From a virus (lineage: Duplodnaviria; Heunggongvirae; Uroviricota; Caudoviricetes), in IMG/VR virus record IMGVR_UViG_2681813315_000026: a stretch of DNA of 4,059 nucleotides. One strand, given 5' to 3'. The translations under genes and the position numbers were made by a program. The notes below the pieces were generated by a model. That model was not told the DNA's origin. It worked only from the letters and a program-made list of their open reading frames with translations, and did not search any database. Of the stretch, positions 47 through 4,059 are shown one piece after another; positions within the stretch are counted from its first letter, which is position 1; the number at the start of each line of letters is the position of its first letter.

Positions 47-61
47 GCTTTTTTATACTAA
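47..61. other. attL common core (O) of the lambda site-specific recombination site
   Basis: Exact 15-bp core GCTTTTTTATACTAA read directly at 47-61, followed by GTTGGCATTATAAAAAAGC, which is characteristic of the phage P' side. Confidence 0.85.
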
Positions 62-140
62 GTTGGCATTATAAAAAAGCATTGCTTATCAATTTGTTGC
101 AACGAACAGGTCACTATCAGTCAAAATAAAATCATTATTT
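62..140. promoter_or_regulatory. attL P' arm with IHF site H' and Int arm-type binding sites
   Basis: TATCAATTTGTTG at 88-100 fits the IHF consensus WATCAANNNNTTR. Tandem arm-type Int sites AGGTCACTAT (108-117) and CAGTCAAAAT (118-127) are followed by a weaker third copy. The int stop codon (135-137) lies inside this arm, as in lambda. Confidence 0.7.
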
Positions 141-1205
141 GATTTCAATTTTGTCCCACTCCCTGCCTCTGTCATCACGATACTGTGATGCCATGGTGTC
201 CGACTTATGCCCGAGAAGATGTTGAGCAAACTTATCGCTTATCTGCTTCTCATAGAGTCTTGCAGACAAACTGCGCAACTCGTGAAAGGTAGGCGGATCC
301 CCTTCGAAGGAAAGACCTGATGCTTTTCGTGCGCGCATAAAATACCTTGATACTGTGCCGGATGAAAGCGGTTCACGACGAGTAGATGCAATTATGGTTT
401 CTCCGCCAAGAATCTCTTTGCATTTATCAAGTGTTTCCTTCATTGATATCCCGAGAGCATCAACATGCAATGTTGTAGGGATGGCAATTTTTACGCCTGT
501 TTTGCTTTGTTCGACATAAAGATATCCATCTACGATATCAGACCACTTCATTTCGCATAAATCACCAACTCGCTGCCCGGTAACAACAGCCAGTTCCATT
601 GCAAGTCTGAGCCAACATGGTGATGATTCTGCAGCTTGATAAATTTTCAGGTATTCGTCAGCCGTAAGTCTTGATCTCCTTACCTCTGATTTTGCTGCGC
701 GAGTGGCAGCGACCGGGTTTGTTGTTATATGGCCTTCAGCTATTGCCTCTCGGAATGCATCGCTCAGTGTTGATCTGATTAACTTGGCTGACGCCGCCTT
801 GCCCTCGTCTATGTATCCATTGAGCATTGCCGCAATTTCTTTTGTGGTGATGTCTTCAAGTGGAGCATCAGGCAGCCCCCTCCTTATTGCTTTAATTTTG
901 CTCATGTAATTTATGAGTGTCTTCTGCTTGATTCCTCTGCTGGCGAGGATTTTTTCGTAGCGATCAAGCCATGAATGTAACGTAACAGAATTATCACTGT
1001 TGATTCTCGCTGTCAGAGGCTTGTGTTTGTGTCCTGAAAATAACTCAATATTGGCCTGTATTGCTTCAGTGATTGCTATCCTCCTGTCTCGGCCTAAACC
1101 AAACTCTTTACCCGTCCTTGGGTCCCTGTAGCAGTAATATCCATTGTTTCTTATATAAAGGTTAGGGGGTAAATCCCGGCGCTCATGACTTCGCCTTCTT
1201 CCCAT
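135..1205 (-). CDS. int: Tyrosine site-specific integrase (lambda Int)
   Basis: 356-aa ORF whose translation I recognise as lambda Int along its whole length (N-terminal arm-binding MGRRRSHERRDLPPNLYIRNNGYYCYRDP, C-terminal catalytic region ending HELRSLSARLYEK...HLLGHKSDTMASQYRDDRGREWDKIEIK). It sits next to attL and its 5' end overlaps xis by 23 nt. Confidence 0.97.
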   Translation of the reverse strand: MGRRRSHERRDLPPNLYIRNNGYYCYRDPRTGKEFGLGRDRRIAITEAIQANIELFSGHKHKPLTARINSDNSVTLHSWLDRYEKILASRGIKQKTLINYMSKIKAIRRGLPDAPLEDITTKEIAAMLNGYIDEGKAASAKLIRSTLSDAFREAIAEGHITTNPVAATRAAKSEVRRSRLTADEYLKIYQAAESSPCWLRLAMELAVVTGQRVGDLCEMKWSDIVDGYLYVEQSKTGVKIAIPTTLHVDALGISMKETLDKCKEILGGETIIASTRREPLSSGTVSRYFMRARKASGLSFEGDPPTFHELRSLSARLYEKQISDKFAQHLLGHKSDTMASQYRDDRGREWDKIEIK

Positions 1206-1401
1206 TTCTGATCCTCTTCAAAAGGCTACCTGTTACTGGTCGATTTAAGTCAACCTTTACCGCTGATTCGTGGAACAGATACTCTCTTCCATCCTTAACC
1301 GGAGGAGGGAATATCCTGCATTCGCGCACCCATCGACGAACTGTTTCAAGGCTTCTTGGGCGTCGCTGGCGTGCGTTCCACTCCTGAAGTGTCAAGTACA
1401 T
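1183..1401 (-). CDS. xis: Excisionase (lambda Xis)
   Basis: 72-aa ORF MYLTLQEWNARQRRPRSLETVRRWVRECRIFPPPVKDGREYLFHESAVKV..., recognised as lambda Xis. Overlaps the int start by 23 nt as in lambda. Confidence 0.95.
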   Translation of the reverse strand: MYLTLQEWNARQRRPRSLETVRRWVRECRIFPPPVKDGREYLFHESAVKVDLNRPVTGSLLKRIRNGKKAKS

Positions 1402-1430
1402 CGCAAAGTCTCCGCAATTACACGCAAGAA
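1385..1430 (-). promoter_or_regulatory. pI promoter region with cII-binding TTGC-N6-TTGC repeat
   Basis: On the minus strand, TTGCGTGTAATTGCGGAGACTTTGCG ATG(xis): direct TTGC repeats spaced by 6 nt (plus coordinates 1414-1427) with a third TTGC at 1403-1406. This is the layout of cII-activated promoters, positioned so that transcripts start at or within the 5' end of xis and express int. Exact -10 and start site not determined. Confidence 0.65.
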
Positions 1431-1449
1431 AAAGCCGCCATCAGGCGGC
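1425..1449 (-). terminator. Candidate intrinsic terminator at the end of the 55-aa ORF
   Basis: Minus-strand GCCGCC-TGAT-GGCGGC (6-bp all-GC stem, 4-nt loop) immediately followed by TTTTTCTTG. The stop codon of the 55-aa ORF lies in the loop. The U-tract overlaps the cII site of pI. Confidence 0.5.
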
Positions 1450-1608
1450 TTGGTGTTCTTTCAGTTCTTCAATTCGAATATTGGTTATGTCTGCATGTGC
1501 TATCTGCGCCCATATCATCCAGTGGTCATAGCAGTCATTGATGTTCTCTGCTTCGATAACTCTGTTGAATGGTTCTCCATTCCATTCACCTGTGACTCGG
1601 AAGTGCAT
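1441..1608 (-). CDS. Hypothetical 55-aa protein (lambda orf55 equivalent)
   Basis: Not in the supplied ORF track (under 60 aa). ATG at 1608 to TGA at 1441 translates to MHFRVTGEWNGEPFNRVIEAENINDCYDHWMIWAQIAHADITNIRIEELKEHQAA. It starts 39 nt beyond xis, the spacing and size I recall for the annotated 55-codon ORF next to xis in lambda. Confidence 0.6.
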   Translation of the reverse strand: MHFRVTGEWNGEPFNRVIEAENINDCYDHWMIWAQIAHADITNIRIEELKEHQAA

Positions 1609-1646
1609 TTATCATCTCCATAAAACAAAACCCGCCGTAGCGAGTT

Positions 1647-1678
1647 CAGATAAAAGAAATCCTCGTCAGTGCGAGGAT
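1647..1678 (-). terminator. Weak candidate hairpin plus U-rich tract at the left edge of the AT-rich island
   Basis: Minus-strand ATCCTCG-CACTGA-CGAGGAT (7-bp stem, plus 1659-1678) followed by TTCTTTTATCTG. Could stop leftward transcription before it enters orf55/xis/int. Sequence-only call. Confidence 0.3.
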
Positions 1679-1825
1679 GCTGTTCATTGCTGCTATACAC
1701 TTTTTTGCTCTCAACGTAAGCGGTAGCTCATTCTGTTGGGTTGGTGCAGTTGCTTTTAGGAAATGCTATTTACCCCTTAAACGTCGGCTGAAAGAGCTAA
1801 AATCCATGCAAAAAATTTACGCAAT

Positions 1826-1838
1826 TTTGTGTATTATT
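1826..1838 (+). promoter_or_regulatory. Candidate extended -10 promoter element for the island ORF
   Basis: TGgTATTAT at 1829-1837 (TGn + TATTAT) in an AT-rich stretch upstream of the 200-aa ORF. A second TGcTATTTA lies at 1764-1772. No convincing -35 for either. Speculative. Confidence 0.25.
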
Positions 1839-1850
1839 GTGCAGTAAGTA

Positions 1851-2453
1851 ATGAGCTATTTTCTGCGCAAAAAATGGATGGTAAATTTGTCCGGGGCAGG
1901 AAAAATTTTATGGGCGCTAAACATGAAAAAAGATTCGTATCCTTATTTGATTTGCATGACAGTTTCAGGCCTGATCTTTATTTTCTTTTTCTTCTGGTGG
2001 CGGGCAGATATTTACAGGGTCACGTTTCTTAATCAGAGTATATCCCACTATTACATTCTGTTTAGCATGGGAATAGCTTTTCTGTTATCTCTGTTTTGGG
2101 TTAAGAAGGGGATAGTAAAACAAAGCGGCTGGAAGAGTCTGTCAGCATACCTTAAGGTTTATGCAGGGATGTGCATATTTGCTGGATTTTTTCTGATTAT
2201 ACCCCTTACAACACTAACTTATTTTTTGCCTGGAGAGACATCGTCTTATGTTGCACCGTATCGGTATACTTCCGGTAGTTCAAAAAGTTGTTCTGGAGCT
2301 GAGGTGGATGACCCCGATCTACATGAGAATATTCGCATTTGCTATCCGTATGGCAATTATGAGTACGATAATATTATCTATGTTGAAAAGAAAATTAATA
2401 CATTAGGTGCGGTAGTAACATATGCACAGACCGCGCGTGATGATACTGAATGA
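1851..2453 (+). CDS. Predicted integral membrane protein of unknown function (moron-type accessory gene), three TM helices plus a roughly 75-aa C-terminal domain
   Basis: 200-aa ORF on the strand opposite to every other gene here. Three long hydrophobic segments (YPYLICMTVSGLIFIFFFFWW; ISHYYILFSMGIAFLLSLFWV; VYAGMCIFAGFFLIIPLTTLTYFL) with basic residues in the presumed cytoplasmic loops (MKKDS, KKGIVKQSGWK). The C-terminal domain is acidic and Tyr-rich with two Cys. Local base composition is visibly AT-rich compared with int and exo. The start is uncertain: in-frame ATGs at 1851, 1878 and 1923, none with a strong SD; M at 1923 (MKKDSYPYL...) would give 176 aa. Confidence 0.6.
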   Translation: MSYFLRKKWMVNLSGAGKILWALNMKKDSYPYLICMTVSGLIFIFFFFWWRADIYRVTFLNQSISHYYILFSMGIAFLLSLFWVKKGIVKQSGWKSLSAYLKVYAGMCIFAGFFLIIPLTTLTYFLPGETSSYVAPYRYTSGSSKSCSGAEVDDPDLHENIRICYPYGNYEYDNIIYVEKKINTLGAVVTYAQTARDDTE

Positions 2454-2487
2454 GATAGTATATAGCGGGCAAGTTTTAGTTAATTTA

Positions 2488-2511
2488 TCGAGGTAATATA
2501 ATTTACCTCGA
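2488..2511. terminator. Perfect 9-bp inverted repeat between the convergent gene ends, possible terminator
   Basis: TCGAGGTAA (2488-2496), loop TATAAT, TTACCTCGA (2503-2511), 35 nt past the stop of the 200-aa ORF. Flanks are A/T-rich on both strands (plus side CTCGTTTATT), but there is no clean U-run. Confidence 0.4.
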
Positions 2512-2663
2512 CTCGTTTATTCTGGTATTAATATTTCGCTTTACGATCGATTTTTATCTGATGATATTATGCGGTTTTCATATACTGACTTACTGTCTTT
2601 TCTCCGTTAGCGATTTTCTCCTGCTCAGCGATGATTTTATCTTTGGCTTCTAGTTAATTTCGC

Positions 2664-2885
2664 TCACTTCGAACCTCTCTGTTTACTGATAAGTTCCAGA
2701 TCCTCCTGGCAACTTGCACAAGTCCGACAACCCTGAACGGCCAGGCGTCTTCGCTCATCTATGGGATCGCCACACTCACAACAATGAGTGGCAGATATAG
2801 CCTGGTGGTTCAGGCGGCGTATTTTTATTGCTGTGTTGCGCTGTAATTCTTCAATTTCTGATGCTGAATCAATGATGTCTGCCAT
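2664..2885 (-). CDS. TraR/DksA-family C4 zinc-finger protein (phage TraR-like, orf73-type)
   Basis: 73-aa ORF with the C-x2-C-x17-C-x2-C motif (CCECGDPIDERRRLAVQGCRTCASC). It aligns by eye with plasmid F TraR (CEACGNPIPEARRKIFPGVTLCVEC). Size and position match the TraR-like small protein reported for the exo-xis region of lambdoid phages. Confidence 0.85.
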   Translation of the reverse strand: MADIIDSASEIEELQRNTAIKIRRLNHQAISATHCCECGDPIDERRRLAVQGCRTCASCQEDLELISKQRGSK

Positions 2886-2937
2886 CTTCCATTAATCCCT
2901 GAATTGTTGGTTAATACGCTTGAGGGTGAATGCGAAC

Positions 2938-2962
2938 AATAAAAAAGGAGCCTGTAGCTCCC
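2938..2962 (-). terminator. Weak candidate intrinsic terminator between the 71-93 aa ORF and the TraR-like gene
   Basis: Minus-strand GGAGC-TACAG-GCTCC followed by TTTTTTATT. The stem is only 5 bp, so it is marginal. Confidence 0.3.
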
Positions 2963-2983
2963 TGATGATTTTGCTTTTCATGC

Positions 2984-3265
2984 TCACCGTTCCTTAAAGA
3001 CGCCGTTTAACATGCCGATCGCCAGGCTTAAATGAGTCGGTGTGAATCCCATCAGCGTTACCGTTTCGCGGTGCTTCTTCAGTACGCTACGGCAAATGTC
3101 ATCGACGTTTTTATCCGGAAACTGCTGTCTGGCTTTTTTGATTTCAGAATTAGCCTGACGGGCAATACTGCGAAGGGCGTTTTCTTGCTGAGGTGTCATT
3201 GAACAAGTCCCATGTCGGCAAGCATAAGCACACAGAATATGAAGCCCGCTGCCAGAAAAATGCAT
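2984..3265 (-). CDS. Hypothetical small protein in the exo-xis region (orf61 position), 93 aa from the first ATG or 71 aa from ATG at 3199
   Basis: ORF in the supplied track. The first ATG (3265) is 10 nt downstream of the orf63 stop and has no SD. The internal ATG at 3199 (MTPQQENALRSIARQ...) has GGGA 8 nt upstream. No motif recognised. It does not fit the lambda orf61 geometry as I recall it (61 aa overlapping orf63 by 20 nt): that frame gives only 9 codons here. Confidence 0.5.
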   Translation of the reverse strand: MHFSGSGLHILCAYACRHGTCSMTPQQENALRSIARQANSEIKKARQQFPDKNVDDICRSVLKKHRETVTLMGFTPTHLSLAIGMLNGVFKER

Positions 3266-3275
3266 TCAGTGGTTG

Positions 3276-3467
3276 TCATACCAGGTCTCTCTCATCTGCT
3301 TCTGCTTTCGCCACCATCATTTCCAGCTTTTGCGAAAGGGATGTGGCTAACGTATGAAATTCTTCGTCTGTTTCTACTGGTATTGGCACAAACCTGACTC
3401 CAATTTGAGCAAGGCTATGTGCCATCTCAATACTCGTTCTTAACTCAACAGGAGATGCTTTGTGCAT
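3276..3467 (-). CDS. orf63: Lambda Orf63-like small protein
   Basis: 63-aa ORF with a strong SD (GGGAGG 4-5 nt before the ATG). It overlaps the next gene by 28 nt. Size, overlap and position next to orf60a/exo match lambda orf63. Sequence identity not verified. Confidence 0.75.
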   Translation of the reverse strand: MHKASPVELRTSIEMAHSLAQIGVRFVPIPVETDEEFHTLATSLSQKLEMMVAKAEADERDLV

Positions 3468-3618
3468 ATCGCCTCCCGTTTATTATTTATCTCCTCAGCC
3501 AGCCGCTGGGCTTTCAGTGGATTTTGGATAACAGAAAGGCCGGGAAATACCCAGCCTCGCTTTGTAACGGAGTAGACGAAAGTGATCGCACCTACCCGGA
3601 TATTATCGTGAGGATGCG

Positions 3619-3622
<4 letters not shown>
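3440..3622 (-). CDS. orf60a: Lambda Orf60a-like small protein
   Basis: The ORF track starts at 3628 (MAMTHPHD..., 62 aa). Starting at the second Met (3622) gives 60 aa, with the ATG overlapping the exo stop as ATGA, which is the lambda arrangement. Confidence 0.7.

Positions 3623-4059
<437 letters not shown>

Follow-up and report, generated by a model that had tools for sequence, protein, structure and literature searches.

A 434-type cassette carrying a membrane-protein gene in place of ea8.5 and ea22 in a lambdoid prophage arm of Escherichia coli

Where does homology to phage lambda end, and what lies between, in an exo-xis region whose two ends resemble lambda and whose centre does not? 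This question is raised by the 4,059-nucleotide stretch of the IMG/VR virus record IMGVR_UViG_2681813315_000026 (Caudoviricetes) analysed here, referred to below as the window. In lambdoid phages, the exo-xis region comprises a conserved block followed by variable genes and has been described as 'highly mosaic' (PMC8614690). The original prediction, made from the sequence without database searches, placed a divergent segment at about 1609/1610–3275 and attributed it to recombinational module exchange. We find that the window belongs to a 2B8/434-type lambdoid prophage, integrated at the lambda attachment site of E. coli, of which it forms the attL-proximal arm. To the reading that a 973-bp moron-like cassette stands in this arm in place of the 1,024 bp carrying ea8.5 and ea22, with the remainder being ordinary lambda-family sequence at ~97% identity, we assign a probability of roughly 0.9.

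Alignment with lambda, the check proposed alongside the original prediction, located the drops in identity at 1678/1679 and 2651/2652. In blastn comparisons, the left arm (window 47–1678) was 97.8% identical to lambda and the right arm (2652–3999) 97.0% identical, with one 1-nt gap. Identity per bin remained at 95–100% up to the junctions and then fell to the random level, a drop that is abrupt and far beyond chance. Collinearity of the whole window with lambda, named beforehand as the outcome that would count against a mosaic, was not seen, since 1679–2651 lacks lambda homology. The limits first given were, however, too wide: the non-homologous part is confined to 1679–2651, and both 1609–1678 and 2652–3275 are 96–99% identical to lambda. 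Module exchange therefore stands as a replacement between conserved flanks but not at the extent claimed, as 973 bp amounts to ~58% of that span.

The 434-type cassette (1679–2651, plus strand), delimited by alignments and the GC profile, takes the place of lambda 29356–30379 (NC_001416), which holds ea8.5 and all of ea22 beyond its first five codons. Both segments occupy the same slot, from the tL4 hairpins to the orf73 stop codon, at 1,024 bp in lambda versus 973 bp in the window, and they share no sequence or protein similarity. Consistent with the expectation that ea8.5 and ea22 have no counterpart here, tblastn of the two lambda proteins returned no significant match (best E = 0.15). The GC content of the cassette is 35–40% (1700–2650) against 44–50% in the flanks. 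Whereas ea8.5 and ea22 are read leftward within the pL operon, the window carries a single rightward gene encoding a membrane protein. The replacement thus swaps exo-xis genes implicated in the lysis-lysogeny decision, including ea22, whose product has been reported as pro-lysogenic (PMC7093339), for an oppositely oriented membrane-protein gene. The link originally drawn to lysis-lysogeny genes survives in the sense that such genes are removed; no alternative alleles of them are supplied.

The integrated state and phage type of the arm follow from its database matches. Matches to phage records begin only at 46/47, whereas those to E. coli chromosomes, in which ybhC is the neighbouring gene, begin at position 1; the window is therefore part of an integrated prophage and not of a free phage genome. 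Positions 1–46 represent the bacterial flank of attL, on the ybhC side of the lambda attB, as identified from E. coli chromosome matches, and are followed by the att core (47–61), annotated at the equivalent site in lambda and 434. The best match is phage 2B8, which is collinear and 99.85% identical over window 47–3999 (3,953 bp), and phage 434 is 99.1% identical overall and 99.1–99.6% identical outside its ORF114 insert. In 434 (OL657226/OL657227; partial record M60848), 2B8 (NC_049952) and mEp332, the cassette is 98.6–99.8% identical, with the same junctions and flanking genes, and in 434 it lies between orf55/tL4 and orf73 as in the window. Two features differ: the ORF114 module of 434 is absent from the window and 2B8, and the window comes from an integrated prophage whose exo carries an IS100-like insertion.

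Of the phages in the collection, only 434, 434B, 2B8, mEp332 and the partial 434 fragment M60848 had the cassette. This fragment probably derives from the work of Baker, Limberger, Schneider and Campbell in 1991, listed as reference 80 in PMC13586616. At a threshold of at least 80% coverage, 906 of 5,426 complete E. coli genomes contain the cassette, always on the chromosome and nearly always in single copy. The full ea8.5-ea22 segment of lambda occurs in 156 E. coli genomes, about one sixth as many. The arrangement is already known, having been in GenBank since M60848 and set out in full with the phage 434 genome of 2022, whose authors state that its morons differ from those of lambda (PMC9119081). 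A literature search for a 434/lambda heteroduplex gave nothing usable among the papers searched.

The only substantial open reading frame (ORF) of the cassette spans 1851–2453 (200 aa) on the plus strand, opposite to the pL operon. Because homologues from other genera all start at its Met-25, we assign the gene to 1923–2453, encoding an inner-membrane protein of 176 aa, on the basis of the ORF, family alignments, AlphaFold2 and hydropathy. The ratio of non-synonymous to synonymous substitution rates (dN/dS) is 0.08–0.15 against homologues in P2-like prophages; the gene is therefore genuine and under purifying selection. Its product has three hydrophobic helices, at about residues 8–27, 42–60 and 77–102, followed in the predicted structure by a C-terminal domain of ~70 residues with five beta strands and the invariant cysteines C123 and C140; the AlphaFold2 model has a mean predicted local distance difference test score of 86.8. 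Under the positive-inside rule, the N-terminus and loop 2 are predicted to be cytoplasmic and the acidic C-terminal domain periplasmic, and this beta domain is predicted to be disulfide-capable.

Searches with the 176-aa protein against Pfam, NCBIfam, PADLOC and PDB profiles returned no match, and no viral predicted structure resembled it. The function-unassigned family phrog_1416 matches only its C-terminal half. A profile search of 1.84 billion representatives recovered 61 proteins, essentially all of the same architecture; the sole outlier, judged uninformative, was a repetitive surface protein of 3,074 aa with a short cysteine motif in common. A literature search found no paper mentioning accession numbers of the protein. 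A second plus-strand ORF of 56 aa (1677–1847), labelled 'putative membrane protein' in the 434 record, was not counted as a gene: it has no family match and lies mostly outside the DNA conserved with the copies in P2-like prophages. Rfam gave no match of note on the window, the one hit (E = 0.96) falling far below the gathering score.

The sequence around the gene gives the cassette a moron-like character. DNA homology to the Salmonella copies in P2-like prophages starts at window 1790/1827, ~100–130 nt before the ATG, so that the gene travels with its own upstream DNA. The conserved upstream non-coding region (1827–1887, plus strand) is a candidate promoter region: it contains a TTGT-N6-TTGT / TTGTGCAG repeat at 1827–1846 and an extended −10-like element, TGgTAAATT, at 1879–1887; the repeats and the form TGnTAAATT are inherited along with the gene across phage families. 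In a scan for consensus sigma-70 sites, no strong promoter appeared upstream of the gene. Downstream, a predicted intrinsic-terminator-like hairpin with a 9-bp stem and a T-tract, found by terminator scan, lies at 2488–2521 on the plus strand (z = −2.05 versus shuffles).

The moron concept arose from comparisons of the lambdoid phages HK97 and HK022. Like lambdoid morons, the cassette is a compositionally distinct single-gene unit with its own predicted terminator, set within a foreign phage operon, and it may have a promoter of its own; it is AT-rich, its gene runs against the pL operon and its upstream DNA is its own. It departs from the pattern of a pure insertion between adjacent genes, however, in that it replaces ea8.5 and ea22.

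The repeat at 1827–1840 is annotated as a CII site in OL657226. We did not accept this site as a sign of CII control: TTGY-N6-TTGY has two occurrences in the window where 0.98 would be expected, one of them the genuine pI site, and the repeat is kept in the copies in P2-like prophages. The P2-like phage family is not known to encode lambda CII. In one Salmonella P2-like prophage (L008; positions ~4905–4935 of L007/L008), the repeat takes the form of a triple ATTGTGCA(G) direct repeat. It may represent an operator for some other regulator.

The distribution of homologues bears on what the protein does. Those from E. coli (78% identity), Salmonella (70% and 57%) and Klebsiella michiganensis (55%) are all in P2-like prophages, where, in the four lineages sampled, they sit between the portal gene Q and the replication gene A. 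This gpQ-gpA interval is an anti-phage hotspot of P2-like prophages and the home of P2 old and tin (Rousset et al. 2022, PMC9122126). Homologues at 55–78% identity therefore occupy the locus that carries such cargo, and the Salmonella copies compared at the DNA level share upstream DNA with the window. The window copy itself lies in a lambdoid and not a P2-like phage, so that residence in a defence hotspot holds for the homologues and not for this copy, and no anti-phage phenotype is known for the protein. More distant copies in Klebsiella, Enterobacter and Cedecea (42–54% identity; three lineages) are lone genes among chromosomal housekeeping genes. In the K. michiganensis P2-like prophages (L026/L027, 2281–5623), the hotspot holds, besides the homologue, an AAA_16 protein of 790 aa and another protein of 279 aa without a Pfam match, which together look like an uncharacterised defence-type pair.

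Because the family lives mainly in the gpQ-gpA hotspot, exclusion or defence is the most plausible role to propose. The protein would be an accessory factor that lysogens produce and that works at the envelope to oppose phages arriving from outside, through superinfection exclusion or defence. In its full form, this proposal holds that the protein is a single-gene exclusion or defence factor, expressed in the lysogen, which moves together with its regulatory DNA between the cargo sites of two unrelated families of temperate phages, the gpQ-gpA locus of P2-like phages and the exo-xis slot of lambdoid ones, having displaced the pro-lysogenic ea22 in about one sixth of E. coli genomes; we consider it possible but doubtful. 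Two observations lower its odds, namely the chromosomal orphan copies and the lack of a family link: among characterised defence and exclusion systems, the 176-aa protein has no sequence or fold match, and no PADLOC model covers it.

The same observations favour a different role, for which we see a chance just short of even: the gene may encode an envelope or stress protein of a housekeeping-like kind, or a factor for interaction with the host, that is present as neutral or niche cargo and plays no part in phage-phage conflict. In Klebsiella, Enterobacter and Cedecea, the orphan copies have metabolic and regulatory genes on either side, and no defence model matches the protein. Against neutral or niche cargo, the four closest homologue lineages sampled outside the cassette of the window are all in the P2 gpQ-gpA hotspot, one of them adjoining the large AAA_16 protein, and about a third to most of the loci not previously tested in hotspots of this kind proved anti-phage when cloned (PMC9122126; PMC13586616).

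How the cassette arrived is constrained by its two junctions. On the left, the boundary sequence tL4 (1628–1678, minus strand), identified by terminator scan and consensus fold, consists of two tandem hairpins in the leftward transcript, at 1659–1678 and 1628–1647, each followed by a U-run. In a consensus fold over six phages, all 16 pairs are retained in at least four of the six sequences, and tL4 is annotated at M60848 2292–2322, corresponding to window 1652–1682. The linker 1612–1704 is conserved in lambda, ev099, 933W, Stx2a_WGPS6 and many Stx and Salmonella phages, and left breakpoints fall in and around the hairpins, at 1655 in Chlobot, 1678 in lambda, 1689 in ev099 and 1704 in 933W.

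On the right, alignment and translation reveal an ea22 remnant (2650–2667, minus strand), whose GTG start at 2667 overlaps the stop codon of orf73 and opens a run of five codons, VSEIN, that ends with TAG exactly at the junction 2651/2652. Homology resumes at 2651/2652 in every comparison phage. We considered and rejected a recurrent right-hand hot spot at this position: the ea22-bearing phages share ~25 nt more of the ea22 5′ end with each other, so that 2651/2652 represents a single junction particular to the 434-type cassette. A conserved boundary sequence, of the sort that the original prediction had suggested seeking at the breakpoints, exists on the left as the double hairpin. A further variant of the region is seen in PhiR70_1 (L018, 1390–1774), which is without orf55, the cassette slot and the 3′ end of orf73 and has 385 bp of unrelated sequence between the equivalents of window 1449 and 2690.

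The ea22 stub of five codons, and junctions that are abrupt and lack terminal repeats, suggest illegitimate recombination as the route by which the cassette first came into a lambdoid ancestor bearing ea22, with loss of ea8.5 and ea22. Homologous recombination between lambdoid prophages would then have carried it further, through the conserved flanks xis-orf55-tL4 (left) and orf73-orf61-orf63-orf60a-exo (right). The opposite polarity, in which the 434-type arrangement is ancestral, ea8.5 and ea22 were gained later by lambda-type phages and the 'stub' is merely conserved DNA downstream of orf73, appears unlikely. It would fit the greater frequency of the cassette in E. coli genomes relative to the exact cassette of lambda, and the first 4 nt of the stub are indeed under the constraint of the orf73 stop codon. 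However, ea22-like genes with the further ~25 nt of shared 5′ end occupy the same position in lambda, ev099, Chlobot, Stx2a_WGPS6 and 933W, and partial ea22 matches occur in 2,625 genomes. Between the same conserved flanks, the slot holds an LprI-family gene and an Ea22-like gene in ev099, a UmuD-like gene, a regulator and others in Chlobot, and antirepressor, EaA-like and Ea22-like genes in Stx2a_WGPS6 and 933W; all four phages keep an ea22-like gene beside orf73, and the 434-type cassette, by removing this gene, is the exception. The variable content of the slot fits the description of the region in PMC8614690. In addition, the window retains a GTG and five ea22 codons with a stop exactly at the junction, and the relatives of the cassette gene in unrelated P2-like phages point to import into a lambdoid background.

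Delivery of the cassette by a transposable element or by site-specific recombination is very improbable. The IS100-like element at 3997–4059 does show insertion sequence (IS) activity in this prophage, but at 1679/2651 we found only short repeats attributable to chance and neither terminal inverted repeats nor target duplications, and the ORF list of the cassette includes no recombinase gene.

The remaining discrepancy with lambda concerns orf61. The window carries a full-length orf61 homologue (2984–3265, minus strand; phrog_303), a 93-aa ORF or 71 aa from the annotated start at 3199. The sole gap in the right arm is a run of six T at window 3134–3139 versus seven in lambda (A6 versus A7 on the coding strand; lambda ~30862–30868). 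The extra A in lambda shifts the frame after ...SEIKK, and the lambda protein ends at 61 residues; moreover, a TGA at window 3266–3268 stands where lambda has GGA, so that the upstream start of lambda is lost in the window. The T6 run and an intact 93-aa ORF were found in all ten non-lambda loci examined (434, 2B8, two E. coli prophages, ev099, Chlobot, PhiR70_1, Stx2a_WGPS6, 933W and the window). With the 71-aa Orf61 as query, 201 of 202 matching records of the phage collection cover at least 80%, and among the rows sampled, the match is split in two in lambda-derived records and unbroken in nearly all others. PHROGs likewise separates the full-length form (phrog_303) from the lambda-only phrog_26061, and lambda Orf61 'appears to be truncated' relative to its Stx-phage homologues (PMC8614690). 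Judged from these sequences, the discrepancy is a +1 frameshift specific to lambda, with lambda as the outlier, and is unrelated to the mosaic junction.

The difference in frame and length at the orf61 position, noted in the original prediction, is thus real, whereas its interpretation as a module swap is not, as it comes down to T6 versus T7 and TGA versus GGA. That the whole of 1609–3275, including a distinct orf61 allele, was exchanged as one foreign block draws on a gene content between orf55 and orf63 unlike the NC_001416 annotation (no orf73, a 61-codon orf61), but can be dismissed, because the alignment refutes it, with 1609–1678 and 2652–3275 at 96–99% identity to lambda, and because orf61 differs by one run-length change of a single base and one point substitution. 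The DNA of orf73 is present in lambda, although NC_001416 leaves the gene unannotated. Taken together, the mosaic is real in substance, its first limits were imprecise, the first reading of orf61 was wrong and the arrangement was already known.

Outside the cassette, the gene map is that of lambda, all genes lying on the minus strand. The lambda-type tyrosine integrase gene int (135–1205, 356 aa), recognised from its ORF and integrase annotations, has 96–100% nucleotide identity to lambda per 200-bp bin. It is followed by the excisionase gene xis (1183–1401, 72 aa), assigned from its ORF and the annotations of lambda and 434, by the CII-site/pI region TTGCGTGTAATTGC (1414–1427, minus strand), a motif match annotated as pI/CII site in OL657226 and M60848, and by the t′I hairpin (1432–1451, minus strand), supported by a hairpin scan and the terminator annotation in the same two records; the window is lambda-like at this point. 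The conserved small gene orf55 (1441–1608; phrog_676, function unassigned) is an ORF annotated in lambda, 434 and 2B8. Beyond the cassette come orf73 (2664–2885), encoding a TraR/DksA-type zinc-finger protein (PF01258, phrog_54; 97.5% to lambda DNA), then orf63 (3276–3467, DUF1382) and orf60a (3440–3622, DUF1317), both from the ORF list and Pfam, the latter with its start placed according to E. coli annotations. The 3′ part of exo (3619–3996; C-terminal ~125 codons by lambda alignment) is interrupted by an insertion sequence. The lambda geometry described for both sides agrees with the lambda annotation: int and xis overlap by 23 nt, 39 nt separate xis from the 55-codon ORF, orf63 and orf60a overlap by 28 nt, and orf60a and exo share a 4-nt ATGA overlap (3619–3622).

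The xis-orf55 interval also distinguishes the window from 434. The ORF114 module of 434 (~420 bp; L002 1882–2343) sits exactly at the t′I hairpin and has two related hairpins as its ends; the corresponding positions of the window are 1429–1451. The t′I hairpin is a second instance of a junction at a terminator hairpin. As the window is lambda-like at xis-orf55 and 434-like in the cassette, it is a recombinant of lambda-like and 434-like arrangements. At the other end, positions 3997–4059 represent the outer end of an IS100-like (IS21-family) element within exo, assigned by 100% identity to the IS100 end beside istB. From the junction at 3996/3997, these 63 nt are identical to the istB-side IS100 end of E. 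coli SCEC020001 (L004 7779–7841), and the hexamer GGATTC precedes both insertions. The exact exo/IS junction of the window was found in none of the complete E. coli genomes of the collection.

As a discovery, the arrangement carries little weight, since it represents ordinary phage mosaicism, of which the exo-xis region is an established case (PMC8614690). It has three practical consequences. Lambda is not typical of this region, the 434-type cassette being about six times commoner in complete E. coli genomes than that of lambda, and the placing of ea22 in a conserved five-gene block has a frequent exception. Functional work on 'orf61' in lambda uses a truncated, frameshifted allele. A question of some value is the role of the cassette membrane protein, given the residence of its family in the anti-phage hotspot of P2.

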